From the NCBI RefSeq assembly GCF_900079115.1, contig NZ_LT549890.1:2460001-2492000 (forward strand): a DNA stretch of 32,000 nucleotides, in the 5' to 3' direction. This stretch comes from Saccharolobus solfataricus (GTDB taxonomy: Archaea > Thermoproteota > Thermoprotei_A > Sulfolobales > Sulfolobaceae). A program made the translations under genes and the position numbers. The notes beneath the pieces were generated by a model. It saw only the letters and a program-made list of their open reading frames with translations, did no database searches and had not been told where the DNA came from. Positions 6,172 through 30,355 of this stretch are shown piece by piece; the stretch's first letter is position 1; the number at the start of each line of letters is the position of its first letter.

Positions 6172-6405
6172 GTGAGTAGTCTTAAGATATATAAGGAATT
6201 GGATTTGACTAGTTCTTCGTGTGCTGGGCCTATTGGTGAGTTGTCCAGTGTTATTGATGAGTTGAGGGATGGCGAGGCTGTTAAGGTCATTTTGGGTGAT
6301 GAGGCCACTAAGAAGGACATTACTTTGTGGAGTAAGAAGAAGGGCTTGAAAATAGTACAAGAGTCGCAAGAGGGAAGCAAGTACGTATTATTAATAAGCA
6401 AATAG
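6172..6405 (+). CDS. tusA: TusA/SirA-like sulfur carrier
   Basis: 77 aa with a GTG start preceded by GGTGAG. Single Cys in LDLTSSSCAGPIGEL, which is the TusA CPxP position but reads C-A-G-P here. C-terminal pattern ...DITLWSKKKGLKIV is typical of TusA. Confidence 0.7.
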   Translation: MSSLKIYKELDLTSSSCAGPIGELSSVIDELRDGEAVKVILGDEATKKDITLWSKKKGLKIVQESQEGSKYVLLISK

Positions 6406-6417
6406 GAGATGAGGTAA

Positions 6418-7575
<1,158 letters not shown>

Positions 7576-7576
7576 C

Positions 7577-9084
<1,508 letters not shown>

Positions 9085-9153: not shown

Positions 9154-9507
9154 ATGAGAATAGCTTTAACATATGATAAGTCCCAAGAATTAAAACCTTT
9201 AGATCAAGCGGAAATTATAGGGATAATTGATGAGGAGAAAAGGGAAGTTGAACAATATGAGAACCCTGGAATAGGTAGTAAGGAAGCTACGATGTCAGTA
9301 ATTCTGGATTTAAATGCAGATGCAATAGTGGTAGGTCCAAAGTTCTTGTGTCCAGGTTCTTATATGATGTCATATGGTAGACTAAGATACATTCCTACAA
9401 AGTATGGGAATCTCAAGGATGTATTAGAGCATTTAGAGGAGATAAAGAAGAACATGAAGGAAGAATTGGAAGAAGAAATGTATGCAGAAGAAATGGAAGA
9501 GTTTTAA
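9154..9507 (+). CDS. Small NifX/NifB-C-terminal-like (dinitrogenase FeMo-cofactor-biosynthesis-domain-like) protein, acidic tail
   Basis: 117 aa. The pattern MRIAL....(beta)...IIGIID.....E.YENPG....A...IL.L.ADAIVVG resembles that domain family. The call rests on pattern resemblance only. Glu-rich C-terminus. Confidence 0.35.
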   Translation: MRIALTYDKSQELKPLDQAEIIGIIDEEKREVEQYENPGIGSKEATMSVILDLNADAIVVGPKFLCPGSYMMSYGRLRYIPTKYGNLKDVLEHLEEIKKNMKEELEEEMYAEEMEEF

Positions 9508-9740
9508 TCGTTAAATAATTTGTAGCATTCGTCTATCTCATATACGGAGTATATTCTTTCTCGTGCATCATCTAAACAAGGTAATGTTTTTATTAGACCT
9601 TTTTCCCTAAGTATTCTTAGCGCGTATCTTAACGTGCGTGTTGGTAATTTAGTTTGATCTTGTAATTCTTTGAATCTAATCACCTTCTTTTCCAATATAA
9701 CCTTCAATACAAGTTTTGCTGAGGGCGGGAGTTTTTCCAC
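9504..9740 (-). CDS. Small winged-helix DNA-binding protein
   Basis: 78 aa. LVLKVILEKKVIRFKELQDQTKLPTRTLRYALRILREKGLI is a classic wHTH. Its stop overlaps the convergent 9154-9507 stop (TTAA). Confidence 0.6.
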   Translation of the reverse strand: MEKLPPSAKLVLKVILEKKVIRFKELQDQTKLPTRTLRYALRILREKGLIKTLPCLDDARERIYSVYEIDECYKLFND

Positions 9741-9796
9741 ATTTTATCTTTTTACTCATATTTCTTAAGACTTTCGCTATGTGCAAATAAGTAGTT

Positions 9797-10219
9797 TTAT
9801 CCCAAATTTTTGGTTAGTAACTTATACCACAATGTACCATTATCATCCATTCCTTTTTCAATTTCATAACCCATTATCATCCATAATTCTATTCCACCTA
9901 ACATATTGTAGACTTTTACTTCTTTAAATAAAGAAGGTTCAGTATAAACAAGCCATGTGGATCTATTGGCGTGTTCGCATATAATTGCTACACCATTTTT
10001 AACTAAATTATTTTTGCTTAATACCAACGGAAATAACTCTTTAAAGTAGTCTAAAGGTAGTAATATTGACCCTGGTATATGATGGTCTTCGTATTCCCAA
10101 GGTTGCCTGACATCAATTAGCGTAATTGCCTTATTCTTGACTAGTTTCCTAATTACTGATGGTGGTACGTTTTGTATGTTTGGATAAAAAGGAGACCTTC
10201 TCTCGGTTATTAACATCAT
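9797..10219 (-). CDS. Single-domain rhodanese-like sulfurtransferase
   Basis: 140 aa. LIDVRQPWEYEDHHIPGSILLP plus the active-site loop CEHANRS. Confidence 0.8.
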   Translation of the reverse strand: MMLITERRSPFYPNIQNVPPSVIRKLVKNKAITLIDVRQPWEYEDHHIPGSILLPLDYFKELFPLVLSKNNLVKNGVAIICEHANRSTWLVYTEPSLFKEVKVYNMLGGIELWMIMGYEIEKGMDDNGTLWYKLLTKNLG

Positions 10220-10361
10220 AATCTAAACCTTTTATTGAGAATTTAAATTTGTTGAAATTTTAGATCTTCAAAACTACTTTTATTTAAAATGAAATTTACA
10301 AAAAATGCATAAACATTATGATAGCTAACTTTTTATTTTCTTAGGAGAATATGCTAACTTG

Positions 10362-11756
10362 ATGGCTATTGATAAGCTGATTGATAAATTTAGAGTTAAT
10401 TTAGATAAGTACAAAAAAATGGGATTGAATCCGCTATCGCTTGCTACAGGATGTGCAGTAAAAGTAGATTTAATAGACACAGTTTACCCAGCTATACGGA
10501 AGATAAGAGACGAATTGGTGAAAAGAAATATAGAAATATTACCTAGAGAAGATGCTGACATTTTCGTAAGTAGAGAGAAGATTTACATAAAGAGAGTGAT
10601 TAACGGCGGAGAGTTTGACGCAGATAGAGCCGTTAGCCTTATTCAGGTTAACCAAGAGACATCAGGGAATCCTGATAAGTTTGCTGAGTTCCTATTGAAA
10701 GTTTACACTTCGATAAAAACTACTAGAAAGCTCACAATAGGTAAAGGTCATTCAATAGTTACCTCAAATCCTAAGGGTGAAGTGGCAGTATTAGATCTAT
10801 TCAGACTAGAAGGAGGAAAGGAGAGATCTTACACTGTTGCAAATAACGACACTATTCAAATAGTAGATCCTTTGGATGACCCTGGATCTCAGATGCAAGT
10901 TGATGTGGCTATTTCCAATTCTTTAAATGACCTTTTTACTAAGGGTGTTTTTCAAGATTTAAGGATGATTCCGGTCGTTGATGCTCCAATGGATGATCTA
11001 AAGGAACAATTGCTGAAAAACGCTGAAAATTATTCTAGGGAATATTCAATTGAATTATTAAGCGATGTTCAACCTAATTCCAAAACATTAATGATAGGAG
11101 CTACTGTAATAGGTAAGTCCGATCATGAATTACCAACATATTACAATAGGGTTAATGAAAACATGGAAATCCTAGTGACCAGACCAGTTGGTGAATTAAC
11201 GCCAATAAATGTGTTTATGTGGATGCTGACTGTTCCCGAGTTAATAGAAGATATGGAAGCTAGGGGAATTACTATACAGAGAGTAGAAGAAGCTAAGAGA
11301 AAAGCCCTAATGTACATGAGGAAACCTAATAATGAAGTAGCTAAAATTATATACGATCATCTACCACCCTTTGGAGGCTCATTTGACGAAAATTCTCATA
11401 TAGCCATGACTACTGATGTTACCGGTCCAGGATTATTTGTAATAAAGGAATTTGCTGAAAAGGCACAAGTAGATGTGGAGTTGTTTGATATCCCAGTAAT
11501 AGATCCGGATATACATGAGTTCGCCACCGAGAATTTTATCATACCAAATTCTACTGCAGGGACAAACGGAGCCATAGTTATTTTCGCTCATAAGAGAGTT
11601 ATAGATGAAATTTTCGATGAATTGAAAAGGAAGTCGCAAGAACCTTATATCATAGGTAAGGTTACTGGGAAAGGAAATGGTACCGTTATAGTCCCACCAA
11701 CTATTACAAAGTACATTCATAGAAATAATGTGTTAAGACAGTTCAAAATAAGGTGA
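10362..11756 (+). CDS. Selenophosphate-synthetase-related (SelD-like) PurM/AIR-synthase superfamily protein
   Basis: N-terminal LATGCAVKV has the same Cys-x2-Lys spacing as E. coli SelD GAGCGCK (C17/K20). [29 protein letters not shown] aligns to Sel[43 protein letters not shown] aligns to AMTDVTGFGLL, and [12 protein letters not shown] to DPQTSGGLLLAV. The track starts at TTG 10359; the ATG at 10362 is more likely. Confidence 0.6.
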
Positions 11757-11961
11757 AATATTTCCTTATAAAAATATTTCATAGTAGCAGTATTTCGCCT
11801 TTTTATCTATGTTAATGTAAAATGTTCAATTATTAGTTTTTATATTAGAACTCTCCTCGTGATTTGAATGTAGAGAAATAATTAAACATTTTATTACCTA
11901 ATATTCCTAGCTAAACATTTTTTACGTGATAAAATAAATAGCTAAGAGTGCAATATAATAT

Positions 11962-12810
11962 GTGTATCCGCCAGATTTTACATATGTTAGGGTTAGTAGC
12001 TCTGAGGAAGCTACAAAATTTCTAGAATCCCACGACGATGCAAGGCCTCTAGCTGGAGGACAAAGTTTAATTCCAATGCTTAAACTTCGTGTAATATCGC
12101 CCAATTATATAGTTGACCTAAATCCTATAACGTCACTAAGTTATGTAAGAAGTTCCTTTAATTCAACTAAAATTGGTGCTCTAACTCGATATAATGAAAT
12201 ACTAAAGAATGATCTAGTAAGGGTAAACGTTCCATTACTTCATCAAGCAGTTAGGGTAGTAGGAGATATGCAAGTTAGAAACTTAGGTACTATTGGTGGT
12301 AGCGCTGCAAACGCTGATCCATCAGCTGATATCCCCACTGTACTTACTGCGTTAAACGCCGAAATTATTCTATCCTCAGCATCCGGCAATAGATCAGTTA
12401 ATGCTCTAGATTTCTTTAAAGGCGCATTCGCCACAGATTTAAGAAAAGGTGAAATTATCTCTGAAATTGTTTTACCTAACTTGGAGGGATATAGAACAAT
12501 TTACAAAAAGGTCGTAAGAAGAGCTGGAGATTTTGCACTTGTATCTCTAGCATTAGCGATAAAATTGAGGCAAAATGAGATAGAGGATATTAGATTAGCT
12601 TATGGTGGAGTTGGGGAGAGACCATTCAGAGCGTTAGAAGTTGAGAAAAGTGTAATGGGTAAAAGGCTAAATGATGAGTTAGTAGAGGAAATTGTAAGTA
12701 AGGTTTCAAGTCAAGTAAATCCCCCTTCCGATACTAGGGGGAGTTCTTGGTATAGGAGGGAGGTTATGAAGGTTATAACTAGAAAAGCCTTAAAGGAGGT
12801 GTCGGGTTAA
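11962..12810 (+). CDS. Mo-hydroxylase medium (FAD-binding) subunit, CoxM/CutB-like
   Basis: 282 aa with a GTG start. LAGGQSLIPMLKLR and NLGTIGGSAANADP are typical of the FAD-binding subunit of the xanthine dehydrogenase/CODH family. Confidence 0.85.
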   Translation: MYPPDFTYVRVSSSEEATKFLESHDDARPLAGGQSLIPMLKLRVISPNYIVDLNPITSLSYVRSSFNSTKIGALTRYNEILKNDLVRVNVPLLHQAVRVVGDMQVRNLGTIGGSAANADPSADIPTVLTALNAEIILSSASGNRSVNALDFFKGAFATDLRKGEIISEIVLPNLEGYRTIYKKVVRRAGDFALVSLALAIKLRQNEIEDIRLAYGGVGERPFRALEVEKSVMGKRLNDELVEEIVSKVSSQVNPPSDTRGSSWYRREVMKVITRKALKEVSG

Positions 12811-13302
12811 ATGTTAATGGTTAATCAAGGAGAGAAAATTAAAATAAAAGTTAAGGTAAATGGAGTATTGTATGAGAGATATGTAAGTCCAAGGATACTA
12901 TTAGTTGACTTTTTAAGGGAAGAGTTAGGCTTAACGGGAACGAAAATTGGATGTGATACTACAACTTGTGGCGCATGCACAGTTCTATTAAATGGTAAAT
13001 CAGTAAAATCTTGTACATTGTTTGCAGTGCAAGCTGATGGTGCAGAAATAACTACAATTGAGGGTCTCTCAGTAGATTCTAAGCTTCATCCAATTCAAGA
13101 GGCGTTTAAGGAAAATTTCGCCCTTCAGTGTGGTTTCTGTACGCCGGGAATGATAATGCAGGCATATTTCTTGCTGAAAGAAAATCCAAATCCTTCTGAA
13201 GAGGAGGTTAGAGATGGACTTCACGGTAACATTTGTAGGTGTACTGGATATCAAAATATTGTTAAGGCAGTTTTAGATGCTTCAAGGAGGTTGAGAGCAT
13301 GA
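12811..13302 (+). CDS. Mo-hydroxylase small [2Fe-2S] subunit, CoxS/CutC-like
   Basis: 163 aa. [12 protein letters not shown] and CGFCTPG...CRCTGY are the two 2Fe-2S binding motifs. The ATG directly follows the upstream TAA. Confidence 0.9.
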
Positions 13303-15548
13303 GCTACGTTGGCAAGCCAGTAAAAAGAATTTATGACGATAAATTCGTAACAGGTAGAAGCACTTATGTTGACGATATAAGGATACCAGCTCTATATGCC
13401 GGTTTTGTTAGAAGTACTTATCCCCATGCAATTATTAAGAGAATTGATGTTAGTGATGCGTTAAAGGTTAATGGTATAGTTGCAGTATTTACTGCAAAGG
13501 AAATTAACCCCTTATTAAAAGGTGGAATTAGACCTTGGCCTACGTATATAGATATACGATCATTTAGGTACAGTGAGAGGAAGGCATTTCCAGAAAATAA
13601 GGTCAAATATGTAGGTGAACCAGTAGCAATTGTGCTTGGCCAAGACAAGTATAGCGTTAGAGACGCCATAGATAAGGTAGTAGTTGAGTATGAACCCTTA
13701 AAACCAGTTATTAGAATGGAAGAAGCAGAAAAAGATCAAGTAATAATCCATGAGGAGTTAAAAACTAACATATCCTATAAGATTCCATTTAAAGCAGGAG
13801 AAGTTGACAAGGCATTCAGTGAATCTGATAAGGTAGTTAGAGTTGAGGCCATAAATGAAAGATTAATTCCAAATCCCATGGAACCTAGAGGAATTGTATC
13901 TAGGTTTGAAGCAGGAACACTATCAATATGGTACTCTACTCAAGTTCCTCATTATATGCGTTCAGAATTTGCCAGGATACTTGGTATACCCGAAAGTAAG
14001 ATAAAAGTCAGTATGCCGGATGTGGGAGGTGCCTTTGGGGCTAAAGTTCATTTAATGCCAGAAGAGTTAGCAGTAGTAGCATCGTCAATCATTTTAGGGA
14101 GGCCAGTAAGATGGACAGCTACTAGAAGTGAGGAGATGTTAGCCAGTGAAGCGAGGCATAACGTTTTCACTGGTGAGGTAGCAGTTAAAAGAGATGGTAC
14201 TATTCTAGGTATAAAGGGTAAACTATTGCTAGATCTAGGAGCCTATATAACAGTAACTGCCGGTATCCAACCATTAATAATACCAATGATGATACCCGGC
14301 CCCTACAAAATACGTAATCTGGATATCGAAAGCGTTGCAGTCTACACTAATACCCCACCAATTACTATGTACAGAGGAGCCAGTAGACCAGAGGCAACAT
14401 ATATAATTGAAAGGATAATGAGTACAGTGGCTGACGAGTTAGGGTTAGATGATGTAAGTATTAGGGAAAAGAATCTAGTCACTGAATTACCATATACAAA
14501 TCCGTTTGGTTTAAGGTATGATAGTGGAGACTATGTTGGATTATTAAGAGAAGGCGTGAAGAGGTTAGGTTATTACGAACTTAAGAAGTGGGCTGAAGAG
14601 GAGAGAAAGAAGGGGCATAGGGTTGGAGTAGGGTTAGCGTATTATCTGGAAATATGTAGTTTTGGTCCATGGGAATACGCTGAAGTTAGAGTGGATGAGA
14701 GGGGTGATGTATTAGTCGTTACTGGTACAACACCTCATGGACAAGGTACAGAAACTGCAATAGCTCAAATAGTTGCAGACGCCTTACAAATAGATATAAG
14801 TAGAGTTAGGGTAATATGGGGAGATACTGATACTGTTGCAGCCAGTATGGGAACTTATGGTTCAAGATCTGTAACAATAGGTGGCTCTGCAGCAATTAAA
14901 GTTGCAGAAAAAATCTTAGATAAGATGAAGAGAATTGCAGCATCTACTTGGAATGTCGATGTTCAAGAAGTTCAATATGAGAAAGGAGAGTTTAAGTTAA
15001 AGAATGATCCAAGTAAGAAGATGAGTTGGGACGACGTTGCTAGCATAGCGTATAGAAGTCATGATCCTGGGCTAGTAGAGAAGATAATCTACGAGAACGA
15101 TGTGACTTTCCCCTATGGAGTCCATATAGCGACAGTGGAGGTAGATGATACTGGAGTTGCTAGAGTTTTAGAATATAGGGCATACGATGATATTGGGAAG
15201 GTTGTAAATCCAGCATTAGCAGAAGCGCAGATTCATGGTGGAGGTGTCCAGGCTGTTGGACAAGCACTATATGAGCAAGCTTTACTCAATGAGAATGGAC
15301 AGTTAATCGTAACTTATGCAGATTATTATGTCCCAACTGCTGTTGAGGCGCCTAAGTTTACGTCAGTCTTTGCTGATCAATATCATCCATCTAACTATCC
15401 AACTGGTAGTAAGGGTGTTGGAGAGGCAGCATTAATCGTAGGTCCTGCAGTGATAATTAGAGCATTGGAGGACGCTATTGGCACTAGATTCACTAAAACT
15501 CCAACTACTCCAGAGGAAATTTTAAGGGCTATCGCTAGTAAAAGATGA
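13299..15548 (+). CDS. Mo-hydroxylase large molybdopterin subunit (aldehyde oxidoreductase-type, CoxL/CutA-like)
   Basis: 749 aa. [10 protein letters not shown] (GGxFGxK), loop MYRGASRPE, and catalytic-Glu context [13 protein letters not shown] overlap with the small subunit. Confidence 0.9.
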
Positions 15549-15670: not shown

Positions 15671-15991
15671 ATGATAGAAATGTTAGATAAAGTACCGGGT
15701 ATAATTGCCGTATTTAGATTTCGTGAGGGTAAACTTGCAAAAATATACGGTCAAGATATCTCAATGGACCTAGATAAATTAAGTAACATTTTAGTAGAGA
15801 ATATGAGAATTGGCGAAACTGAAGCTAAAGAGTTAAAGTTTCTTGAGCCGTTCAGAGGATTTGCTATGATATTAGATGATACGGGAGTTGTATTCGTAGA
15901 TGACTATTTAGTAATAACTGATGCTAAGAAAACCAATTGGGACTTATTGGTTAAGTCTATTTTAAAAGGAGAGGTGATAAGAAGTGGGTAG
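15671..15991 (+). CDS. Roadblock/LC7-like (possibly DUF2173-type) small soluble protein
   Basis: 106 aa. The LDKVPGIIAVFRFREGKL... pattern is like Roadblock/MglB-type domains. Clear paralogy to the N-terminal half of the next ORF. The family name is recalled from memory only. Confidence 0.4.
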   Translation: MIEMLDKVPGIIAVFRFREGKLAKIYGQDISMDLDKLSNILVENMRIGETEAKELKFLEPFRGFAMILDDTGVVFVDDYLVITDAKKTNWDLLVKSILKGEVIRSG

Positions 15992-16460
15992 TGTAAAGAA
16001 GTTGAAAGGATATGAGGGGCATGTGAAAATTGACGAGAATGGTGAAATTGAAGAAAGTTCAAATATAGAAAATCTCTCTAAACTAGTTGAATTAATAAAA
16101 TTTAATTTAAAAAAGGGTAATGAAGAGGCGAAACAACTAGGTTTTAACAAGCTGAATGGTTTTGCAATGTTTGGTAGCAATAAGTCCTTAACCTTTATGA
16201 AAGGTTTAGCTATAGTTGTAGATAATGATAAAGCTGATTGGCAAGACTTATTCACATATTATACCTATAATAAGACATTTATAATAACTGGAGGGGTATT
16301 GGTTTTACTTTCAATACTATTATTCTATTATGGGCTGCTTACTCCTATGTTTAACTTTATGGCTCCAGAGCCTCGCATTTATATACCAACAATCCTATTA
16401 TTAATAGGAGTAATATTTCTGATACTTTCCAAGTCTACCTTCTCTTACAGATTAGAATGA
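15984..16460 (+). CDS. Membrane-anchored paralogue of 15671-15991 (Roadblock-like domain plus 2 TM helices)
   Basis: 158 aa. GTG start with GAGGTGA 6 nt upstream and an 8-nt overlap with the upstream stop. NEEAKQLGFNKLNGFAMF...VVDNDKADWQDLF parallels ETEAKELKFLEPFRGFAMI...ITDAKKTNWDLLV. The C-terminus has two hydrophobic helices. Confidence 0.45.
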   Translation: MGSVKKLKGYEGHVKIDENGEIEESSNIENLSKLVELIKFNLKKGNEEAKQLGFNKLNGFAMFGSNKSLTFMKGLAIVVDNDKADWQDLFTYYTYNKTFIITGGVLVLLSILLFYYGLLTPMFNFMAPEPRIYIPTILLLIGVIFLILSKSTFSYRLE

Positions 16461-16542: not shown

Positions 16543-16977
16543 ATGAAAGAGCTAAAAGGAACCAAAACTGCTGAAAACTTGAGGCATGCATTCTGCGGAG
16601 AAGCAATGGCTAACCGAAGGTATCTATATTTCGCTAAAAGAGCTGATGAGGAAGGATACCCTGAAATTGCTGGATTGTTAAGAAGCATAGCAGAAGGTGA
16701 AACTGCCCACGCATTTGGTCACTTAGATTTCATAAGGCAAGGAGGAATTGGCGATCCAGCTACTGATAAACCAATAGGAACATTAGAGCAAATGTTAGAA
16801 TCAGCAGTAGCAGGAGAAACTTACGAATGGACGCAAATGTACCCAGGCTATGCTAAGGTAGCTAGAGAAGAAGGGTTTAATGAAATTGCAGAATGGTTTG
16901 AAACCTTGGCAAGAGCTGAGAAAAGCCATGCTGAGAAATTCACTGGAGTGCTTAACCAACTAAAGGGAGGCAAGTAA
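16543..16977 (+). CDS. Rubrerythrin lacking a rubredoxin domain (sulerythrin-type)
   Basis: 144 aa. Di-iron ExxH motifs EGETAHA and AEKSHAE. There is no CxxC pair anywhere. Strong resemblance to my recollection of Sulfolobus sulerythrin (MK.LKGTKTAENL...RRYLYFAKRADEEGYPEIAGLLRSIAEGETAHAFGHLDF). Confidence 0.9.
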   Translation: MKELKGTKTAENLRHAFCGEAMANRRYLYFAKRADEEGYPEIAGLLRSIAEGETAHAFGHLDFIRQGGIGDPATDKPIGTLEQMLESAVAGETYEWTQMYPGYAKVAREEGFNEIAEWFETLARAEKSHAEKFTGVLNQLKGGK

Positions 16978-18164
16978 TGTATTCTTTAAATCCAAGTAAT
17001 TCTACTTTTTTTGACTCTAATAAATTATTATCAGAATTTATAAGGCAAGCGAGCGTTTGTCACGGTTGCAGATTATGTTTCAACTATTGCGATTCTTTTC
17101 CCCTTATGTTTACTTATACTGATAAGAAAGGCCCCAAAAACTTAACCTTAGATGACTTGTTTAATGTAGCCTCTAAGTGCTTTCACTGTAAGATGTGCTA
17201 CGTCAATTGTCCCTATGTTCCTCCTCACGAATTTAACATGGACTTTCCAAGCCTAATGGAATGGGCGTGGCTATACTATAAGAAAAATCGAGGATTAACT
17301 GTAAGGGATTTTATCTTTGAAATGCTAGATGGTGTGAAGTTTGCAAGGCCCTTAGCTAAAGTAATTATGGAAAAGAACAAGGAGTTATTAGGTATTCACA
17401 AAGAAGCCCCCACGTTACCAGTAGCGGAGAAAGGTTTAAGGGAAAGAGTTAAGCCCAAACGTATCGATAGTCCCAAAGCAAGGGTTGCACTATTTCCCAC
17501 TTGTTTAATTGAGAATTTCTTCCCAGAAATTGGCGAGGATTTAGTAGAAATATACAACGAATTAGGGATAGAAGTAATTATTCCTAATTTCGTTTGTTGT
17601 GGAGCTCCAATGTTGGATTCTGGTGACGTTGATAGGCTTAAGAAGAATGCTGAGTATAATATCAAAATAATTGAGGATTTAATAAAGGAAGGTTATGATG
17701 TAGTTTCGCCTATACCTACTTGTACGTTAATGATTAAGGAGTACAAGAAGGTTCTTGATAGAGAAGTACCTAAGGTTTATGATGCAATGGAGTATCTTTT
17801 AAAATTAAAGAATGAGGGCAAGATAGAGCTAAAGGGTAAGATTGAGAAGAGTGTGTATTATCATCCTCCATGCCACCTTAAGTTCTTACAATTAGGATTA
17901 CCTGGGGTTAGATTATTAAGGTCAATGGGAGCGAAAGTCGATATTTCCAATAATGGTTGTTCCGGTATAGATGGGGGTTGGGGATTAAGAAATTATGACA
18001 CTGCTAAAAGAGTAGGAAGTAAAATGATGGAAGCTTTTAAACAGAGTAAAGCTGATCTTTTTTCAACTGAATGCCCTCTGGCTGGGCTTCAGATAGAAAA
18101 ATCTTCTGGTAGAAGGCCATTACATCCAATTCAATTGTTAAAGGAGGCGATGAAAAATGGTTAA
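16977..18164 (+). CDS. HdrD/GlpC-like Fe-S oxidoreductase (2x[4Fe-4S] ferredoxin domain plus two CCG-type domains)
   Basis: 395 aa. CHGCRLCFNYCDSFP and CFHCKMCYVNCPY (CxxCxxCxxxC x2). CCG domain FPTC...NFVCCGAPM and a second degenerate one, HPPCH...NGCSGIDGG. TAATG overlap with the rubrerythrin stop. Confidence 0.8.
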   Translation: MYSLNPSNSTFFDSNKLLSEFIRQASVCHGCRLCFNYCDSFPLMFTYTDKKGPKNLTLDDLFNVASKCFHCKMCYVNCPYVPPHEFNMDFPSLMEWAWLYYKKNRGLTVRDFIFEMLDGVKFARPLAKVIMEKNKELLGIHKEAPTLPVAEKGLRERVKPKRIDSPKARVALFPTCLIENFFPEIGEDLVEIYNELGIEVIIPNFVCCGAPMLDSGDVDRLKKNAEYNIKIIEDLIKEGYDVVSPIPTCTLMIKEYKKVLDREVPKVYDAMEYLLKLKNEGKIELKGKIEKSVYYHPPCHLKFLQLGLPGVRLLRSMGAKVDISNNGCSGIDGGWGLRNYDTAKRVGSKMMEAFKQSKADLFSTECPLAGLQIEKSSGRRPLHPIQLLKEAMKNG

Positions 18165-18723
18165 AATAACCCTACAAGATATCTTACCTTGGAGAACATA
18201 TGAAAAAGTTCGAATGGATAGAATAAGGAGGATTATTGAGGTAAAGAATAAGAGAAGAATAGAGCTAGGTGATAGATTAACATTATTGTTTGAAAATAGG
18301 GATACTGTTCTTCAGCAAATTCAAGAGATGGTTTACCTCGATAAAAAAGAGAAAAACGAAGACATACTAGAAGAAATAAAGATATACTCAACATTGCTTC
18401 CATGTGACGGTAAGATAAAAGCCTCTCTATATATACATTCCTATGACTTTAAGGATCTGGATTGGGTCTATGATAATTTGAAAGGCATATATAACTCAGT
18501 ATTCTTAAGAGTAGGAAACAAACTAATTCAAGGAATTCCAGAGGGAGGAAGAGATCAAGGAAGAGAGTTCTCTACGGTCCAGTATTTGACATTTGATCTT
18601 GAGGGAGAGAAAAGTACCGATATGGAAGTTCATGTAATTCACGAGAAGTATAGATATTCAACTAAGATTGACAAAAGCTTAGCGGAGGATTTAATTAGAG
18701 AAGCGTATGATATTTGTGAATGA
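18157..18723 (+). CDS. Conserved hypothetical protein (DUF3501-like, by recollection)
   Basis: 188 aa. 8-nt overlap with the upstream Fe-S oxidoreductase, with AGGAGG upstream. I recall a family of this size commonly following rubrerythrin/HdrD-like genes. No catalytic motif recognised. Confidence 0.5.
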   Translation: MVKITLQDILPWRTYEKVRMDRIRRIIEVKNKRRIELGDRLTLLFENRDTVLQQIQEMVYLDKKEKNEDILEEIKIYSTLLPCDGKIKASLYIHSYDFKDLDWVYDNLKGIYNSVFLRVGNKLIQGIPEGGRDQGREFSTVQYLTFDLEGEKSTDMEVHVIHEKYRYSTKIDKSLAEDLIREAYDICE

Positions 18724-21777: not shown

Positions 21778-24024
21778 CTAAATTGGGACTAGGGACCATA
21801 AACTCACTATCACACTACTAAATCCCATCGCAAGTGCAGCATATTCCGGTGGTAACGTTATGAATGGGTAAAATACTCCTGCTGCAATAGGTATTATTGC
21901 TGTATTATAGCCAAAGGCCCATGCCAAATTCTCCTTAATTTTTCTAACTGCCAATTCAGTTTGCTCAAATAACCCTATTATGTCATCTAATGAATTAACC
22001 ACAACTTTACCAGCACTCTTAGCCAAATCAGTACCGCTAGAAATAGCTATACCTATGTCAGCTTCTCTCATAGCGATGGAATCATTTATTCCGTCACCTA
22101 TAAACATTACTTTATTGCCATTTTCCCTTAATTCCTTCACCAACTCCGCTTTATCATCTGGAGTTAACTCCTTACGAACTTCAACACCTAACTCCTTCCC
22201 TATTTCATCAGCATAATTACTACTATCTCCAGTTGCTATTATTATCCTAATTCCCCTTCCTTTCAGATAGCTTATTACCTTTTTGGCATCATCCCTGAGC
22301 TTATCCCTTATGTTAACTATCCCTCCAGCATTTCCATTAATGCAAATAAAAATATCTCCTTCATCTTCGACATTCCAGTTACAATTGTCCCTCACGAAAT
22401 CTTTACTCCCCACAATTACATCGTTACCATTTACTCTAGCATATATTCCTCTTCCAGGAAACTCCTCAAACTGCTCAATCTCTCCCGCTCTTACGTTCAT
22501 TTTATGGAATGCTTTAGCGATAGGATGTATACTTCTACTTTCTGCAATTGCAGCCAAATTTAACGCTCCTTCAATGAACTCCTTCTTACTAACAATTACA
22601 TATTCACCCTCAGTTACAGTACCAGTTTTGTCCAAGATTGCAACGTTGATATTTCTCATTTCCTCAAAAATACTACCATCCCTAATTATAATACCTCTTT
22701 TTAATGCTCTCCGAACACTAACTAACATTGCCATAGGCGATGCTAACCCTAGTGCACAAGGACACGCTGCAGCTAATACTGCTACACTGAAAAGTAGAGA
22801 AGAATAGAGGTTATAGTCCAAGACAAATTTCCAAACTAGGAACGTAAGTGCTGAGATGCTAATAACTATAGGCACAAATATTGAGGAAACTTTGTCCACT
22901 AGATTTTGGATGGAAACTCTTGTATTATAAGCCCCTCTTACACTCTCTGTTACTTGTACAATATAACTTCTATCCCAGTTTCTAGTAACGTATACTTCTA
23001 AGTAACCATTTACTAAAATACCACCAGCTAGGACGTTATCTCCTTTTTTCTTCAGTACTGGCTTCTGCTCTCCAGTAAGTATAGCCTCGTTTACTTCTCC
23101 TTCTCCATTCTCAATTATTCCATCAGCTGGTATTCTCTCTCCCGCCCTAACAATTACTACATCGCCTACTTTTAGTTCATTAGAGTTAACTACTCTTCCG
23201 TCTTTCAGAGTGGCTTTATAAGGTTCTATACGTATCTCTGCACTCATCTTAGCTTTAATATACGCTTCTAGTGTTTTACCCACAAGTATGAAGGTTATTA
23301 ATAATGAAGCGTCGGCGTAAAATGTGTTGTGAAGGAAAATACTAGAGAGCCACAATATGTTTGATGCTAAGGAGACTAGTACATCCATATTAGTAGTTTT
23401 ATTCTTTAATGCCCTATACGCACCTTTATGAAATCTTAATCCTGAGTAAAACTGTACTGCTATGGATACCAATATGCCAAAAAAGAATGGAAGTAGATAT
23501 GTTAAAGGTGTAAATATTATACCTACTGCCAATCTCCTTAATAAGTCATGGAAATCCTTATAGAGTATACTCTTTTCACTACGTTGTTCATTTACTATTT
23601 CCCCCTTAACTCCAGCTTCCTTTAATATCTCCTCTGGAGTAGTGGTCTCTGGATTGTACTCTACGCTCACTATTCCTAAACCTGGATTGGACTTTACATC
23701 AACTACCCCCTTAACGTTTTCGAATTTCCTCTCTATTTTAGGCATTTCCTCTGGGTTAACATTCAATTTTATAGTAAACTTCTCTGTTGCAACATCATAT
23801 CCAGCTTTTCTCACGGCCTTTACTAATTCCTTTAATCTTACATTACCACTTAGGATTACTTTTGCGCTCCCAGTTGCTAGATTTACTTCGGCATCTTTTA
23901 CACCACTAACTGACTTCAAAGATTTAGAGACAGTTGTTACGCATGTTGCACAATGCATCCCAACTATTCTTAGTTGTTCCTCATTATCTGTAATTCTTAG
24001 CTCTTCTTTCTTCTCAGTGGCCAT
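21778..24024 (-). CDS. copA: Copper-translocating P1B-type ATPase
   Basis: N-terminal HMA GMHCATCV, then TGE, CPC (AACPCALGLASP), DKTGT and GDGINDS. The track start at 24045 would lie inside copM. The ATG at 24024 (MATEKKEEL) overlaps the copM stop by 11 nt and is preferred. Confidence 0.9.
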   Translation of the reverse strand: MATEKKEELRITDNEEQLRIVGMHCATCVTTVSKSLKSVSGVKDAEVNLATGSAKVILSGNVRLKELVKAVRKAGYDVATEKFTIKLNVNPEEMPKIERKFENVKGVVDVKSNPGLGIVSVEYNPETTTPEEILKEAGVKGEIVNEQRSEKSILYKDFHDLLRRLAVGIIFTPLTYLLPFFFGILVSIAVQFYSGLRFHKGAYRALKNKTTNMDVLVSLASNILWLSSIFLHNTFYADASLLITFILVGKTLEAYIKAKMSAEIRIEPYKATLKDGRVVNSNELKVGDVVIVRAGERIPADGIIENGEGEVNEAILTGEQKPVLKKKGDNVLAGGILVNGYLEVYVTRNWDRSYIVQVTESVRGAYNTRVSIQNLVDKVSSIFVPIVISISALTFLVWKFVLDYNLYSSLLFSVAVLAAACPCALGLASPMAMLVSVRRALKRGIIIRDGSIFEEMRNINVAILDKTGTVTEGEYVIVSKKEFIEGALNLAAIAESRSIHPIAKAFHKMNVRAGEIEQFEEFPGRGIYARVNGNDVIVGSKDFVRDNCNWNVEDEGDIFICINGNAGGIVNIRDKLRDDAKKVISYLKGRGIRIIIATGDSSNYADEIGKELGVEVRKELTPDDKAELVKELRENGNKVMFIGDGINDSIAMREADIGIAISSGTDLAKSAGKVVVNSLDDIIGLFEQTELAVRKIKENLAWAFGYNTAIIPIAAGVFYPFITLPPEYAALAMGFSSVIVSLWSLVPI

Positions 24025-24184
24025 GTGGCATTCCCTTAGGTCCATTCCTTAAATACTCTTCCGGATTTCTCTGAAACTCCCTTAGACAATGAGATGAGCA
24101 GAAATAGTAGATTTTTCCCTTATACATTGTCTTATATTGACTTTTCTCATCTACTTCCATTCCACAAACCGGATCGATTATCAT
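24014..24184 (-). CDS. copM: TRASH/YHS-domain copper metallochaperone (56 aa)
   Basis: Absent from the supplied track because it is under 60 aa. My own translation gives MIIDPVCGMEVDEKSQYKTMYKGKIYYFCSSHCLREFQRNPEEYLRNGPKGMPHGH*. DPVCGM...YYFCS..C...F is the TRASH/YHS metal-binding pattern. It sits between copR and copA, as in the described Sulfolobus cop cluster. Confidence 0.8.
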   Translation of the reverse strand: MIIDPVCGMEVDEKSQYKTMYKGKIYYFCSSHCLREFQRNPEEYLRNGPKGMPHGH

Positions 24185-24200
24185 AATACTAATTATTGCT

Positions 24201-24212
24201 TTTATTATAAAG
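24201..24212 (-). promoter_or_regulatory. Candidate TATA box of the copM-copA promoter
   Basis: The minus strand reads CTTTATAATAAA, centred about 22 nt upstream of the copM ATG. This is consistent with a leaderless or short-leader archaeal transcript. Confidence 0.4.
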
Positions 24213-24274
24213 AACCTTTTCTTCTGTAAATTTGTATCTATATATTGTTGATTACAGTCAAAATGACTCTAAAA

Positions 24275-24766
24275 CTAATGTAAGTGCAAGCCATTGTTGC
24301 GTGCAAATTTTTCCTTTAATCCAGACAAGCAAGAATTGCAACAAGCATAATACGTTTTCCTTCCTACCTTATAGGTCAAGGGATTATCATATATTTCCTT
24401 ACCGCAGTAATCACATTTAACTACAAAACTGCTCTTGCCTATGAAAACTAAATCCTTTTCTTTTACATTTTTTAACTTATTTTCTAAATCTTCTAAAGTG
24501 TTAGCTCTTATCATGTTAATAAATCTACCATCCAACAGTTTGTAACACTCGTCACTTTGACAAGATTCAGAAATGGCGAAGGCAATAAATGGCTCATTCT
24601 GAAATTTAATAGTGAATTTAACCCCTCTTCTTTTAAGGTTCCTCAAAAGTCTTGTGGCAGTGCTCCTACTGATATTAAGCCTTTTTGATAGTTCAGTGAC
24701 ACTTATCCTAGAATCTTCTCTTAAAATCTCCAGCGCTCTAAACTCTAAATCTGTCAACTTTTCCAT
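24275..24766 (-). CDS. copR: Copper-responsive transcription regulator: Lrp/AsnC-type HTH plus C-terminal TRASH domain
   Basis: 163 aa. LEILREDSRISVTELSKRLNISRSTATRLLRNL (HTH). C-terminal CDYCGKEI...YYACCNSCLSGL (TRASH Cys pattern). Confidence 0.8.
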   Translation of the reverse strand: MEKLTDLEFRALEILREDSRISVTELSKRLNISRSTATRLLRNLKRRGVKFTIKFQNEPFIAFAISESCQSDECYKLLDGRFINMIRANTLEDLENKLKNVKEKDLVFIGKSSFVVKCDYCGKEIYDNPLTYKVGRKTYYACCNSCLSGLKEKFARNNGLHLH

Positions 24767-24777
24767 AGAGTTCTTCT

Positions 24778-25437
24778 TTACTTAGGCCGTTTTAAATTTG
24801 TTTTTCTCATATTGCCAAGTATAAGGTTAACTACTCTATTATAAATTGTTGTAATTAACTTTTCTAGATTCGTCGCAGTTAAGGCTATTGCTATTCCTAA
24901 TATCCATCCAACTAGTACATCTAAAGGCCAATGAACTCCTACATAAACTCTAGAGTAACTGGTAAGTAGAGCCTCTATAAATAATGGTATCGATATGTAA
25001 TACGGTAACGTTAAGAGCACTATCACTGCACCCACAGCCACTATCAGAGCGTGTCCTGAAGGATAGGAATAATCAGTAGGTTCTGGAACTAGTAAATTTA
25101 TATTATGCAGTATTAGAAATGGTCTTGGCTGAGCCATTACATATTTTGATACCTCTCCTAGAATTATAGCTATTATAAATCCGCCAACTAGTAGTAATGA
25201 ACTTCTCCTAAACTTCCCACCCATAATGAATAAAATTGCAGTTACTGGTATCCAAATATACTCTCTGCCGTATTTGCTAAAAAATATCATGATAGGATTT
25301 AGTGCTGGAAGTTGTGAGTGATTGATTAAATAAAAGAAATATACGTTTCCAAGAAAATTAACTTCTCCTATAATTTTAACTACTATAGATATAATAATAT
25401 ATAATGCATAAATTATCGCTATATACTTCCATTTCAT
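24778..25437 (-). CDS. PAP2-family membrane phosphatase
   Basis: 219 aa, multi-TM. The three PAP2 motifs are KYVMAQPRP (Kx6RP), PSGH and SRVYVGVHWPLD (SRx5Hx3D). Confidence 0.8.
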   Translation of the reverse strand: MKWKYIAIIYALYIIISIVVKIIGEVNFLGNVYFFYLINHSQLPALNPIMIFFSKYGREYIWIPVTAILFIMGGKFRRSSLLLVGGFIIAIILGEVSKYVMAQPRPFLILHNINLLVPEPTDYSYPSGHALIVAVGAVIVLLTLPYYISIPLFIEALLTSYSRVYVGVHWPLDVLVGWILGIAIALTATNLEKLITTIYNRVVNLILGNMRKTNLKRPK

Positions 25438-25983: not shown

Positions 25984-27657
25984 CTATTTAACATAAATTT
26001 CATAATGATAAAGTTGAACTGCTATCCCCCATAGCATTAAGATTACGCCTAGGTCCATTCCAGCATACGTTGACTGCGGTCCTATACTCGGTAAGGTCCA
26101 CATTAGGCCCAATAATAATAAGGAAACAATGAAAATTATTATAATTCCATAAAATGCGGCTTTCTTGCTCCAACTGGTCGCTATATTGTTACCTATAGCG
26201 GCTACTGGTTTTCTCCCAAGTATAAAAGCGGCGACTCTTCTTAACATGTATATTGTAAGTAATATAACTGGTATTAAAATGATTCCATTCACGACAGTAG
26301 GAAATTCTAAGAAGTTTACAAATGTTCCTGCCAAGGATAAGGAGGATACACTAGCTAACAGTATTTCCATAGGAGTAATGTTCATTTTAATTACTTTAGT
26401 CTCAGATTTTGAAACTGGGGTATTACCTTGTTTTACTGGCCATAAGTATACAATTATCCCTATAATAACTAACGGTAAACCTAAGTATTCTATCTCTTGT
26501 GAGAATGGAACTGGAACACCAGGTTCCAAGTATCCCCATACTGATAGTTCTATGAGATATATCGCCAAAGTAGAAACTATCCAAGTCCAGAACTTTCTTT
26601 TAGTAACACGTAAATCGTCACTGGGATCCAAGAAGGGAAGGAATATTAGAATTAGAAGACCTATAATGAGAACTGCTAAAACCAATATTGGAGTTATTGG
26701 CATTCCATTAGGTAGAAGGAAGTCAACAAACTTGTAGAGGAATAAGAAGAACCATGGGGGATATGGTTGTACACTGGTAGACTCTGGTGATCCCGCTTGT
26801 GGGGCCGGGTAAGGATTTATAACTATTGGTAATCCATTGATATTTGCTAGTAAGTTAGGAACAAATAGTATTATACCCCATGTTAATAATACGATTGATA
26901 ACATATAAACAAAGTTTCTAGGCCACCATTCATTAAATCTCTGCTGTTCTTCTTTCGTGTAGTATGCGGGGACTTTAGGTTTATCCCTAGCTGAGGGTGT
27001 CATTCCATATCTCTCCGCTAACATGAAGTGAAATAGGAATAGAACTCCCAGTAGAAATACCAACAATATATGCCATCCTAACAATCTATCAAATAATTCG
27101 GATCTCACTAATGGATCTGATGATAATGCAGCACTTCCTCCAGGACCAAATAACCAACCTACTATGGTTGTTGCGCCAGGTATACCAGTACCAACTAATA
27201 ACTGATCTCCAATATCTATCGCATTGACTCCAAGAACATCACTGACTAAGCTATATCCGAAGAATGATGCCCCTAGTGTTAACAATAATAGAATCACTCC
27301 AGTTATCCATTGTAATTCTCTTGGTTTTTTATAAGCCCCCTTATAGAAGTTTCTGAACATGTGTATATATGCCAAGATAATCATAATGTATGCTCCATAT
27401 AAGTGACTAAATAATAAGACTGGGCCATACGGAACGCTGGAAATTATACTTTGTGTTGACTGGTACGCGTAGGCTGGTTGATAATACATTAAGAGGAATA
27501 GACCAGTTATAACAGTATATATGAAAGCCGCAGCTACCATTGCACCTAGCCAATAGGATATATTATACATGTAATCCGGTGTCTTAAATAATGGCGCTTC
27601 AGTTACACCTACTCTATCAATTATCGTATCTATAATACCTTTTTTTTCCTCACCCAT
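25984..27657 (-). CDS. soxC: Di-haem cytochrome b-like subunit of the SoxABCD quinol oxidase
   Basis: 557 aa, polytopic. Paired His in helix B (HLYGAYIMIILAYIH, Hx13H) and helix D (HILLVFLLGVLFLFH, Hx13H). 8-nt overlap with soxB. Confidence 0.85.
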   Translation of the reverse strand: MGEEKKGIIDTIIDRVGVTEAPLFKTPDYMYNISYWLGAMVAAAFIYTVITGLFLLMYYQPAYAYQSTQSIISSVPYGPVLLFSHLYGAYIMIILAYIHMFRNFYKGAYKKPRELQWITGVILLLLTLGASFFGYSLVSDVLGVNAIDIGDQLLVGTGIPGATTIVGWLFGPGGSAALSSDPLVRSELFDRLLGWHILLVFLLGVLFLFHFMLAERYGMTPSARDKPKVPAYYTKEEQQRFNEWWPRNFVYMLSIVLLTWGIILFVPNLLANINGLPIVINPYPAPQAGSPESTSVQPYPPWFFLFLYKFVDFLLPNGMPITPILVLAVLIIGLLILIFLPFLDPSDDLRVTKRKFWTWIVSTLAIYLIELSVWGYLEPGVPVPFSQEIEYLGLPLVIIGIIVYLWPVKQGNTPVSKSETKVIKMNITPMEILLASVSSLSLAGTFVNFLEFPTVVNGIILIPVILLTIYMLRRVAAFILGRKPVAAIGNNIATSWSKKAAFYGIIIIFIVSLLLLGLMWTLPSIGPQSTYAGMDLGVILMLWGIAVQLYHYEIYVK

Positions 27658-29185: not shown

Positions 29186-29691
29186 GATACCACCTCCAAA
29201 GTTCCAGTCATGTATGATGAAGAGTAGCCATCATATTCCGCATTATACCATGTGTAATTCCCTGGCTGATTGGGAGTTACGAAATAAACGTAACTTGTAA
29301 TTCCAGGCACATTATTAACGTTAATTAATCCATTTGGAAGTCTTAGGTAGAATCCAGTATCTACTTGAGGGGAATTTATTATTAATACTACTGGTTCACT
29401 TACATTAGCTATGATAACGTTGGGAATCCATCTGTATTGCACTGCAGTGAGATTTACTACTAGTGTACCGTTTATAACTTCAGAGTACTCACCAGAAGGT
29501 GGTGGGTGAGCTTCGAAATACTTTACTATTTCTTGAGCTTGTGGAGGTAATCCTGAAAACTCTGGTAAACCGTATCTTAAACTAAAGCTCTTTCCAGTCA
29601 AAATGTAATAGACATTCCAACTGAAGAATGTTGCAACCAAGATCAACATAATTATAAACCACACTTCTTCAGCGTGTTCCTTAATATCCAT
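29182..29691 (-). CDS. soxA: Quinol oxidase subunit II-like protein lacking CuA ligands
   Basis: 169 aa with one N-terminal TM and a cupredoxin-like C-terminus. The protein contains no cysteine at all, so no CuA centre is possible. ATGA overlap with soxB. Confidence 0.8.
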   Translation of the reverse strand: MDIKEHAEEVWFIIMLILVATFFSWNVYYILTGKSFSLRYGLPEFSGLPPQAQEIVKYFEAHPPPSGEYSEVINGTLVVNLTAVQYRWIPNVIIANVSEPVVLIINSPQVDTGFYLRLPNGLINVNNVPGITSYVYFVTPNQPGNYTWYNAEYDGYSSSYMTGTLEVVS

Positions 29692-29725
29692 ACTTTACAC
29701 CTAATTCTTTTTTAGAGTATTGAGG

Positions 29726-29733
29726 CTTATAAA
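29726..29733 (-). promoter_or_regulatory. Candidate TATA box of the soxABCD promoter
   Basis: The minus strand reads TTTATAAG about 35-42 nt upstream of the soxA ATG. AGGTG lies 8 nt upstream of the ATG. It overlaps the repeated AAATCTTT motif. Confidence 0.3.
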
Positions 29734-30046
29734 TCTTTATTTGAAATCTTTCGAAGATTTAATAACTTAAACTCTGTTAAAGTTGAGTTAATTAAAACTA
29801 GAATTACATAACATAATATACTATAAGAAAAATTGTAGGTATTCGCATTCACTATTAATCGGAAACTGGTTTACTAACTCAATATTTTTACCTAAATATA
29901 AATATATATGTTATTTACTTTATCATATAATTTCTAACACGTAAAGGTTAGTGCTTATTTTTACTTATTTATTTAGTTAATTTCATTGCATAATAAATTA
30001 CCTCGTAAAAGAGGGAGTGTTCTCATGTAGTCATCTTATTCGATAA

Positions 30047-30355
30047 TTAGTAGTAAAATTCTATCAAGTTTTCTCTAATATACTGTACTCCCTTCAAGTA
30101 TGCCTCGTTTAAGGGAGTTCTCCCCCTTGAGAAGATATGAGGATATATTACATTCAACAAGGCCAAACTGTATTCCGTCATCCTCATACTCCTAGTAACA
30201 GCTTTAGTATCCCTAGCCAGCCTCGCCAAATGAGACCTACACCAAGAATTATGACTCTCCACAAGATAAGTATACTTCTTACCCACTACACGATTATCGA
30301 GAACTTGATAAACACAGTAATAATCAGTATAGTTGACCTTACTCCTTGTGAATCT
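30047..30355 (-). pseudogene. C-terminal remnant of an IS1-family-like transposase
   Basis: The track ORF 30047-30469 (-) contains YTDYYCVYQVLDNRVVGKKYTYLVESHNSWCRSHLARLARDTKAVTRSMRM. This parallels the IS1 InsB C-terminus (TDGW..Y...[29 protein letters not shown]). The N-terminal ~40 codons of the ORF are AT-rich non-homologous sequence, and no catalytic N-terminal part is present. Confidence 0.55.

Follow-up and report, generated by a model that had tools for sequence, protein, structure and literature searches.

Positions 9154 to 15548 of a 32,000-nucleotide stretch of Saccharolobus solfataricus DNA (NZ_LT549890.1, positions 2,460,001 to 2,492,000; hereafter the window) probably hold two described and separately transcribed units lying side by side, and the proximity of a molybdenum (Mo) enzyme to a SelD-like gene is in this case no evidence of a system dedicated to the sulfuration of that enzyme. 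The first unit, composed of a rhodanese gene and the divergently oriented gene of a SelD-like enzyme, would be a sulfur-trafficking and activation module. It would functionally go with an upstream cassette coding for TusA, a sulfide:quinone reductase (SQR)-like flavoprotein, a DsrE-family protein and a DUF1641 protein. The second unit is the operon cutBCA, coding for a glyceraldehyde oxidoreductase (GAOR) of the xanthine dehydrogenase (XDH) family. It would be transcribed from its own promoter and its evolutionary partners would be the downstream genes for rubrerythrin (Rbr), a CCG/HdrD-like Fe-S protein and a DUF3501 protein. That the two units adjoin one another is particular to the Sulfolobus/Saccharolobus lineage. 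An initial annotation of the window had proposed that the rhodanese, TusA and the SelD-like enzyme together install the terminal sulfido ligand (Mo=S) of the adjacent Mo enzyme. Of this proposal, the tie between the sulfur relay and the SelD-like enzyme stands, whereas the tie to the Mo enzyme finds no support across the family: the synteny, the promoter-like element of cutB and a genome that lost the operon speak against it.

The SelD-like gene is, by its profile match, a full member of the NCBIfam family NF038049, 'SelD-related putative sulfur metabolism protein', residues 10-464 of the protein aligning to positions 2-465 of the model (Table 1). Translation almost certainly starts at ATG 10362 rather than at the listed TTG 10359, because the homologs are 464 aa long and begin with M-[AS]-I-D-K. 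An alignment of 16 diverse members revealed the invariant residues C32, K35, D37, D65, N162-D164, N187, N190, D191 and D353. The AlphaFold2 (AF2) model of the protein, predicted with a mean local confidence (pLDDT) of 93, has selenophosphate synthetases as its 14 best fold matches in the PDB, followed by HypE, ThiL and PurM. The protein has in common with SelD this PurM-superfamily fold, the N-terminal Cys-x-x-Lys loop and the motifs NxLxD and TDVTGPG. It is however about 120 residues longer (465 vs ~340 aa, of which ~310-340 columns align), it finds a single weak match among PDB sequences (E=0.002) and it misses the cutoffs of the canonical SelD models TIGR00476 and PRK14105 (22.4 vs 125 and 48.8 vs 291, respectively). 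The known selenium traits of SelD users are missing in the hosts of the SelD-like gene (PMC4210487). The family is small, with 128 representatives at E<=1e-3 among 1.84 billion cluster representatives.

This family was described in Sulfolobales and Thermoproteales by Li et al. (2014, BMC Genomics 15:908; PMC4210487). The authors found the Cys-x-x-Lys and the Asp/Asn residues of SelD to be retained, and reported SirA(TusA)-like, Prx-like (COG2210, DsrE-type) and rhodanese genes as neighbours. They noted that the host lineages lack SelA/SelB, YbbB and YqeB/YqeC and proposed that the enzyme makes a thiophosphate compound; the adjacency to GAOR is not discussed in their paper. A 2022 review cites only this thiophosphate hypothesis for the family. 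The gene of the window does not differ from the family described in 2014 in its score, its residues or its neighbours. The neighbourhood, called undescribed in the initial annotation, was thus already known for its SelD-like gene and sulfur neighbours (PMC4210487) and is covered by a curated NCBIfam model. Neither SelA/SelB nor YbbB (MnmH) is encoded in the 32-kb window.

Evidence on the partners of the SelD-like enzyme comes from the synteny of the whole family. About 90 other genomes entered the overall comparison. One genome per GTDB species was scanned, which gave 102 hits, and the best 80 of them are the loci considered here. Represented are Sulfolobaceae, lineages of the Acidilobales/Desulfurococcales type, Thermoproteales, Nitrososphaeria/Thaumarchaeota and some further groups. 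The open reading frames (ORFs) of related loci were called mechanically. Neighbours were counted by ORF clustering and with hidden Markov models derived from the loci, and the cluster representatives were checked against Pfam; tblastn missed most of the small neighbours. In 67 of the 80 loci (84%), a TusA gene is found no more than 500 bp from the SelD-like gene, often overlapping the start or the stop of the latter and often in two copies. A Sulf_transp (YeeE/YedE-type) membrane protein is encoded nearby in 28 loci, a rhodanese in 25, which has two domains outside Sulfolobaceae, DsrE in 11 and a pyridoxal phosphate (PALP) enzyme in seven. By comparison, an XDH-family gene is found within 10 kb in 3/80 loci (two L subunits and one cutB remnant), all of them from Sulfolobaceae; the 69 loci outside this family have none. 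These partners point to the import and carriage of sulfur, because TusA, the transporter and the rhodanese recur and the XDH family does not. The initial annotation's association of the SelD-like enzyme, whose SelD motifs are invariant, with a rhodanese/TusA/DsrE relay is therefore upheld, and the synteny with Mo hydroxylases that it anticipated in other genomes largely fails. The set of neighbours parallels the linkage of YedE, SirA-like (YedF) and SelD observed in selenium users (PMC5322559). In the window, 142 bp separate the SelD-like gene from the divergent rhodanese gene, and the TusA and DsrE genes are located 2.4-4 kb upstream of the former.

Some of the distant loci are compact. In nine loci of Thaumarchaeota/Nitrososphaerales metagenome-assembled genomes (MAGs), the SelD-like gene, two TusA genes and a two-domain rhodanese gene follow one another on the same strand, and a YeeE/YedE-type transporter and a further TusA are encoded 2-3.5 kb upstream of this array. 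One locus with a SelD-like gene belongs to a MAG labelled as Acidobacteriota.

The Mo enzyme is likewise a known one. The subunits encoded by cutB, cutC and cutA carry flavin adenine dinucleotide (FAD)-, 2x[2Fe-2S]- and Mo cofactor-binding domains, respectively, follow one another in the order M-S-L and all exceed the cutoffs of the 'glyceraldehyde dehydrogenase' equivalog models (NF041018-20). CutA shares 77% identity with its S. acidocaldarius counterpart. As judged from its sequence, cutBCA is a GAOR1-type glyceraldehyde oxidoreductase and most likely the Sso2636/2637/2639 enzyme itself. No difference was found from the GAOR1 of Sulfolobales, which has the same gene order (Saci_2271/2269/2270; STK17810/30/20; Sso2639/2636/2637). 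Saci_2271/2269/2270 codes for the purified SaGAOR, and S. tokodaii possesses three active GAORs (PMC4726530). A literature search on XdhC in Sulfolobus and on Saci_2267/2268, which judging from gene order are the rhodanese and the SelD-like gene of S. acidocaldarius, respectively, returned nothing useful.

The spacer between the two units suggests that they are transcribed independently. The SelD-like gene ends at position 11756 and cutB starts with the GTG codon at 11962, leaving a gap of 205 bp where the initial annotation had estimated ~200 bp. Within this spacer, the core AATAAATA of the element GATAAAATAAATA does not vary between the window, Sulfolobus sp. E5-1-F, Sulfolobus sp. A20, S. 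acidocaldarius and a Saccharolobus MAG, and the rest of the spacer has diverged. The element is centred ~26 nt before the GTG start of cutB, a spacing expected for a leaderless Sulfolobus transcript. cutBCA thus appears to have its own promoter. At the other end of the spacer, the stop codon of the SelD-like gene is overlapped by a stem-loop with 9-bp arms (GAAATATTT...AAATATTTC) followed by a T5 run (-12.2 kcal/mol, z=-2.95). It is conserved in close relatives and could act as a terminator or as a protein-binding site. A third sequence, GAAATATTTC, was considered as a shared regulatory motif and rejected: it has 7 matches with at most one mismatch where 2.7 are expected, and only the two located after the SelD-like stop codon are relevant.

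The gene contents of other genomes also separate the two units. The GAOR1 ortholog of Metallosphaera hakonensis keeps Rbr, CCG and DUF3501 downstream and has no SelD-like gene upstream. That of Ca. Aramenus has unrelated neighbours, none of which is the SelD-like gene. In Acidianus brierleyi (L090:2597-10244), cutBCA directly follows a cluster of three genes, which code for an FdhA-like protein (a molybdopterin protein resembling formate dehydrogenase), a small protein similar to DUF1641 and FdhD. In formate dehydrogenases, FdhD acts as the sulfurtransferase of the Mo cofactor. Conversely, a Saccharolobus MAG (L001:4273-4476; JAVYOH010000040.1) encodes a 67-aa product in which the N-terminal 51 residues of CutB are joined in frame to the C-terminal 16 of CutA. 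The fusion sits behind an intact cutB promoter box, next to an intact SelD-like gene of 464 codons. It is the scar of a deletion of the whole GAOR1 operon. The quality of this MAG is imperfect, several of its other genes being fragmented. Its gene order, in which DUF2173 directly follows the SelD-like gene, was also considered as proof that cutBCA had been inserted, a reading rejected once the alignment showed the deletion scar. The block formed by cutBCA, Rbr, CCG and DUF3501 is kept in Sulfolobus spp., S. acidocaldarius, Saccharolobus and M. hakonensis, and the partnership of GAOR1 with these downstream genes is more conserved than that with the SelD-like gene. The Rbr, CCG and DUF3501 proteins might serve as the physiological electron outlet of GAOR. 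Thermoproteus sp. AZ2 also has Rbr and DUF3501 genes in the vicinity of its SelD-like gene.

By analogy with SelD, the most likely mechanism of the first unit would be the following. Sulfane sulfur carried as a persulfide by TusA or by the rhodanese would be handed to Cys32, located in the flexible N-terminal Cys-x-x-Lys loop of the SelD-like enzyme. With ATP, the enzyme would then form an activated phospho-sulfur compound (thiophosphate or a comparable one), and the activated sulfur would be delivered to an acceptor that is probably biosynthetic.

Several arrangements of the locus coexist in Sulfolobaceae. Sulfolobus sp. E5-1-F, Sulfolobus sp. A20 and S. acidocaldarius share with the window the order orfX, winged helix-turn-helix (wHTH) gene (-), Rhod1 (-), SelD-like gene (+), cutB, cutC, cutA, Rbr, CCG, DUF3501, and the genes further upstream of orfX in S. 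acidocaldarius are wholly different from those of the window. In S. tokodaii and the RB850M genome, the order is Rhod2 (-), TusA, SQR, DsrE, DUF1641, SelD-like gene, NAD-binding dehydrogenase, DUF2203 (-). In these two genomes, the TusA-SQR-DsrE-DUF1641 cassette thus lies immediately before the SelD-like gene and on its strand, as it does in a Stygiolobus-like one. No XDH-family gene is found within 10 kb of the SelD-like gene of S. tokodaii. Saccharolobus has two rhodanese paralogs, since Rhod1 adjoins the SelD-like gene and Rhod2 adjoins a gene called here L3, which codes for a lone L subunit of the GAOR family (NF041018, 912 bits).

L3 is part of the argument against a fortuitous juxtaposition. 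In M. sedula and M. javensis, the locus reads Rhod2 (-), SelD-like gene (+), L3 (-), DUF2203 (-). In S. islandicus, the orthologous L3 (69% identical to that of M. sedula) lies between DUF2203 and Rhod2. Rhod2 follows on the same strand after 93 bp; it shares 71% identity with the rhodanese of M. sedula and only 51% with Rhod1 of the window. The SelD-like gene, or its rhodanese, thus adjoins a GAOR-family L-subunit gene or operon in two configurations, both confined to Sulfolobaceae. Such adjacency exceeds the prediction of a naive random model and may reflect a functional tie specific to this lineage. Further points that weigh against the reading of two separate units concern the data themselves: several contigs of the scan were short, the promoter and terminator calls were made from sequence conservation alone, and a literature search for experimental work on the SelD-like family found nothing, so that the thiophosphate chemistry is a conjecture. 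The two configurations may also derive from a single ancestral neighbourhood that was locally shuffled, which fits the recurrence of peptidase M1, terminal-oxidase genes, the NifX-fold ORF described below and DUF2203 around the loci. The S. islandicus locus (L092:5585-8690) contains no SelD-like gene, and the locus of M. yellowstonensis, otherwise the same as that of M. sedula and M. javensis, lacks L3. The Metallosphaera L3 gene was considered as an inverted cutA ortholog; this was rejected, as it is a paralog 41% identical to CutA of the window and the true ortholog is located elsewhere. The genes for DUF2203 and for the lone, GAOR3-like L subunit are conserved as a pair beside Rhod2, whose loop is CEHGNRA, in S. 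islandicus and M. sedula (L085:9383-13998).

The route put forward by the initial annotation, in which sulfur passes from the rhodanese and TusA through the SelD-like enzyme to the terminal Mo=S of the adjacent GAOR, would replace XdhC and cysteine desulfurase in Sulfolobaceae. It draws on the two configurations just described, including Rhod2 beside L3 in S. islandicus, and on the order from orfX to cutBCA, which is kept between S. acidocaldarius and Saccharolobus in spite of their different upstream genes. XdhC/CoxF/FdhD-type chaperones do the job that it assigns to the SelD-like/rhodanese pair. The window is devoid of them, as the initial annotation had noted for XdhC/NifS-type and CoxDEF-type factors: no XdhC/CoxI, CoxD (AAA+), CoxE (VWA), CoxF, YqeB/YqeC or cysteine desulfurase was found among its ORFs of at least 90 aa. 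In addition, CutA contains GVGEAA, the catalytic Glu context typical of sulfido-dependent hydroxylases. The aldehyde oxidoreductase (AOR) of D. gigas is reported to work without a sulfido ligand. In the crystal structure of S. tokodaii GAOR2 (4ZOH), Mo is modelled with dithiolene and three oxygen ligands, two oxo and one water, and with no sulfido, as in D. gigas AOR (PMC4726530). This structure could represent a desulfo form; it weakens the premise that GAOR needs a terminal Mo=S without settling it, and no cyanolysis data for GAOR were found in the literature. The genomic evidence is adverse. No XDH-family gene accompanies the SelD-like gene in the 69 loci outside Sulfolobaceae or in most Sulfolobaceae genera, each gene has its own promoter-like elements, L3 is missing from the otherwise identical loci of M. 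yellowstonensis, S. tokodaii and RB850M, a Saccharolobus MAG lost cutBCA and kept the SelD-like gene, and GAOR1 orthologs occur elsewhere without a SelD-like neighbour. This route is accordingly considered quite unlikely. There is similarly little reason to believe that the rhodanese/SelD-like pair of Sulfolobaceae was recruited for the maturation of GAOR-family enzymes, with sulfido or dithiolene sulfur supplied through ATP-dependent thiophosphate, a scenario whose only argument is that the SelD-like gene or its rhodanese repeatedly adjoins one of two GAOR-family L-subunit genes, cutA and L3, in different genera. If true, it would define a sulfuration route of Mo enzymes without bacterial or eukaryotic counterpart.

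Another destination for the sulfur would be the thiocarboxylation of ubiquitin-like carriers of the MoaD/ThiS/SAMP type, for molybdopterin dithiolene sulfurs, thiamine or tRNA thiolation. The link to Mo would then pass through the synthesis of the cofactor and not through the terminal sulfido. In E. coli, TusA and rhodanese domains feed MoaD thiocarboxylation, and the best NCBIfam similarities of the window rhodanese are to the rhodanese domains of MoeB/MoeZ. A ThiF/MoeB-type E1 is encoded within 6 kb of the SelD-like gene in six loci, and a pyridoxal phosphate enzyme accompanies it in seven. S. acidocaldarius is a chemoorganotroph and has the SelD-like gene, which argues for an assimilatory rather than an energy-yielding role. 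Against this, the E1 gene is present in only 6/80 loci, the genes adjoining the SelD-like gene include no identified MoaD/ThiS-like one, and no biochemical precedent is known for thiophosphate in carrier thiocarboxylation. A role in carrier thiocarboxylation is on balance unlikely. The resemblance to SelD invites yet another reading, in which the enzyme handles selenium and makes selenophosphate for an unrecognised trait with the help of a YedE-like importer and TusA-like carriers. Selenophosphate synthetases are its best structural matches, the Cys-x-x-Lys loop and all metal- and ATP-binding residues of SelD are kept (PMC4210487), and the Sulf_transp, TusA and DsrE set resembles the YedE/YedF/SelD one (PMC5322559). 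However, the protein scores far under the SelD cutoffs, SelA/SelB, YbbB and YqeB/YqeC are missing in the host lineages (PMC4210487), and the two-domain rhodanese, the SQR-like flavoprotein and DsrE are classical sulfur proteins. Moreover, purified GAOR1-3 of S. tokodaii are essentially free of selenium (Se), with 0-0.07 nmol/mg against 2.9-5.5 nmol/mg of Mo (PMC4726530). A selenium function is thus very improbable. The same data bear on the orphan-SelD system of Haft and Self (2008), made of SelD, YqeB and YqeC, which the initial annotation had invoked as an analogy and in which a SelD-superfamily gene likewise adjoins an XDH-family enzyme. Contrary to that system, the window has no canonical SelD and no YqeB/YqeC, and CutA stays below the cutoffs of the Se-dependent families (222.8 vs 830.45 for TIGR03311 and 240.6 vs 1101.9 for TIGR03313). 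The analogy falls because the GAORs hold almost no Se and the scores are below these cutoffs, and a Se-dependent hydroxylase was rejected on the same grounds.

The remaining genes around the SelD-like gene were found where the initial annotation had placed them. The ORF listing and domain searches recovered the rhodanese, the wHTH gene, the NifX-like ORF, the SelD-like gene, cutBCA and the upstream relay, of which TusA and DsrE were confirmed by Pfam. The single-domain rhodanese (PF00581, 46.8 bits for a cutoff of 22.2) has the announced CEHANRS loop, with Cys81 in the six-residue active site CEHANR, in which C-E-H-x-N-R is invariant across six Sulfolobaceae orthologs and paralogs. The divergent arrangement of the rhodanese and SelD-like genes, predicted over a ~140-bp promoter region, is present in eight Sulfolobaceae loci. 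In the window, the 142 bp between them contain back-to-back TATA-like boxes, at 10240-10249 for the rhodanese on the minus strand and at 10330-10339 for the SelD-like gene, each ~26-27 nt before the start codon. Both boxes are kept in Sulfolobus sp. E5-1-F, Sulfolobus sp. A20 and S. acidocaldarius, and this segment is a putative divergent promoter region.

The two small genes beyond the rhodanese were less firmly identified. The ORF of the proposed wHTH regulator is present and confined to the Sulfolobus/Saccharolobus arrangement, but its HTH_24 score falls just short of the cutoff (Table 1). The neighbouring 117-aa ORF, annotated as a possible NifX-like cofactor-binding protein and 100% identical to a protein of S. 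solfataricus, has no Pfam or NCBIfam match at E<=1 and hence no PF02579 profile match, but its fold was rightly recognized. Its AF2 model (pLDDT 92) is matched by Foldseek to 2RE2, 2QTD, 1RDU and 2WFB, with TM-scores of 0.59-0.71 and E-values from 8.5e-6 to 1.3e-3, and the predicted structure indicates a NifX/NifB-C/ORP (orange-protein) fold. The alignment of its family, which occurs in Sulfolobales, Micrarchaeota and Thermoplasmatota, reveals an invariant C-P-G-S-Y-x-M-S motif. This ORF neighbours COX1-Rdx genes in Metallosphaera and S. tokodaii; in Thermoplasmatota it has unrelated neighbours. The idea that it regularly accompanies the SelD-like gene or Mo enzymes was rejected because its neighbours differ elsewhere, and it is probably a bystander.

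The window as a whole has a G+C content of ~36%. A search for the exact sequence of its SelD-like protein and a megablast comparison with plasmids gave no match. Its DUF1641 protein comprises, before the C-terminal DUF1641, four internal repeats of ~90 aa with a similar motif in each. The pair of DUF2173-related genes is found in the loci of Saccharolobus and Sulfolobus sp. and is absent from S. acidocaldarius and Metallosphaera. The remainder of the window (21778-25437 and 25984-31465) holds a copper-resistance cluster with a CopA P-type ATPase and a TRASH-domain wHTH regulator, as well as a PAP2 phosphatase and a terminal-oxidase cluster (cytochrome b, COX1, Rieske). A fragment of an IS1-like transposase lies at 30047-30469.

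Table 1. Features of the window around the SelD-like gene and cutBCA, with the matches on which they are based.
Feature	Coordinates	Strand	Basis and remarks
TusA sulfur carrier	6172..6405	+	PF01206, E=2e-14; opens the TusA-flavoprotein-DsrE-DUF1641 cassette
Type-III sulfide:quinone-reductase-like flavoprotein	6418..7575	+	NF049943, 347.7 bits, under the cutoff of 525; Pyr_redox_2, FCSD_central
DsrE-family protein	7577..7957	+	PF02635, E=8e-12; the 'Prx-like COG2210' class of the 2014 paper
Repeat protein with DUF1641 at C-terminus	7951..9084	+	PF07849, E=1e-14
117-aa protein, NifX/NifB-C/ORP-like fold	9154..9507	+	Predicted structure; no profile match
78-aa probable winged-helix regulator	9504..9740	-	HTH_24, 21.2 bits vs cutoff 21.9
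Single-domain rhodanese Rhod1, loop CEHANRS	9797..10219	-	PF00581, E=4e-12
Putative divergent promoter region, rhodanese/SelD-like gene	10220..10361	.	Two TATA-like boxes
SelD-like protein, 464 aa	10362..11756	+	NF038049, 725.8 bits vs cutoff 250
Terminator-like stem-loop	11755..11806	+	Arms GAAATATTT/AAATATTTC, T5 run after; putative function
TATA-box-like element of cutB, GATAAAATAAATA	11928..11940	+	Conserved AATAAATA core
cutB, GAOR FAD (M) subunit	11962..12810	+	NF041019, 429 bits vs cutoff 350
cutC, GAOR 2x[2Fe-2S] (S) subunit	12811..13302	+	NF041020, 307.4 bits vs cutoff 290
cutA, GAOR1-type Mo-pterin (L) subunit	13299..15548	+	NF041018, 1325.8 bits vs cutoff 790
Two tandem DUF2173-related genes	15671..16460		Between cutA and rubrerythrin
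Rubrerythrin, CCG/HdrD-like Fe-S protein, DUF3501	16543..18723	+	Pfam matches; conserved downstream partners of the GAOR1 operon

The SelD-like gene, the sulfur-carrier genes around it and the Mo enzyme had all been catalogued before, and the window adds no new component to them. The comparison presented here widens the range of the SelD-like family with respect to 2014, to Nitrososphaeria/Thaumarchaeota, Acidilobales/Desulfurococcales-type MAGs and a few others. It also provides a firmer list of partners, including the YeeE/YedE-type transporter, the two-domain rhodanese and DsrE, and a clear negative for a general link between SelD-like enzymes and Mo hydroxylases. A narrow lead to the Mo enzyme, confined to Sulfolobaceae, remains. 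The biochemical function of the SelD-like enzyme has been in question since 2014. Should it turn carrier-bound sulfur into thiophosphate, it would be the first thiophosphate synthetase in biology, and the SelD-like system would be a sulfur counterpart of the YedE/YedF/SelD selenium module.

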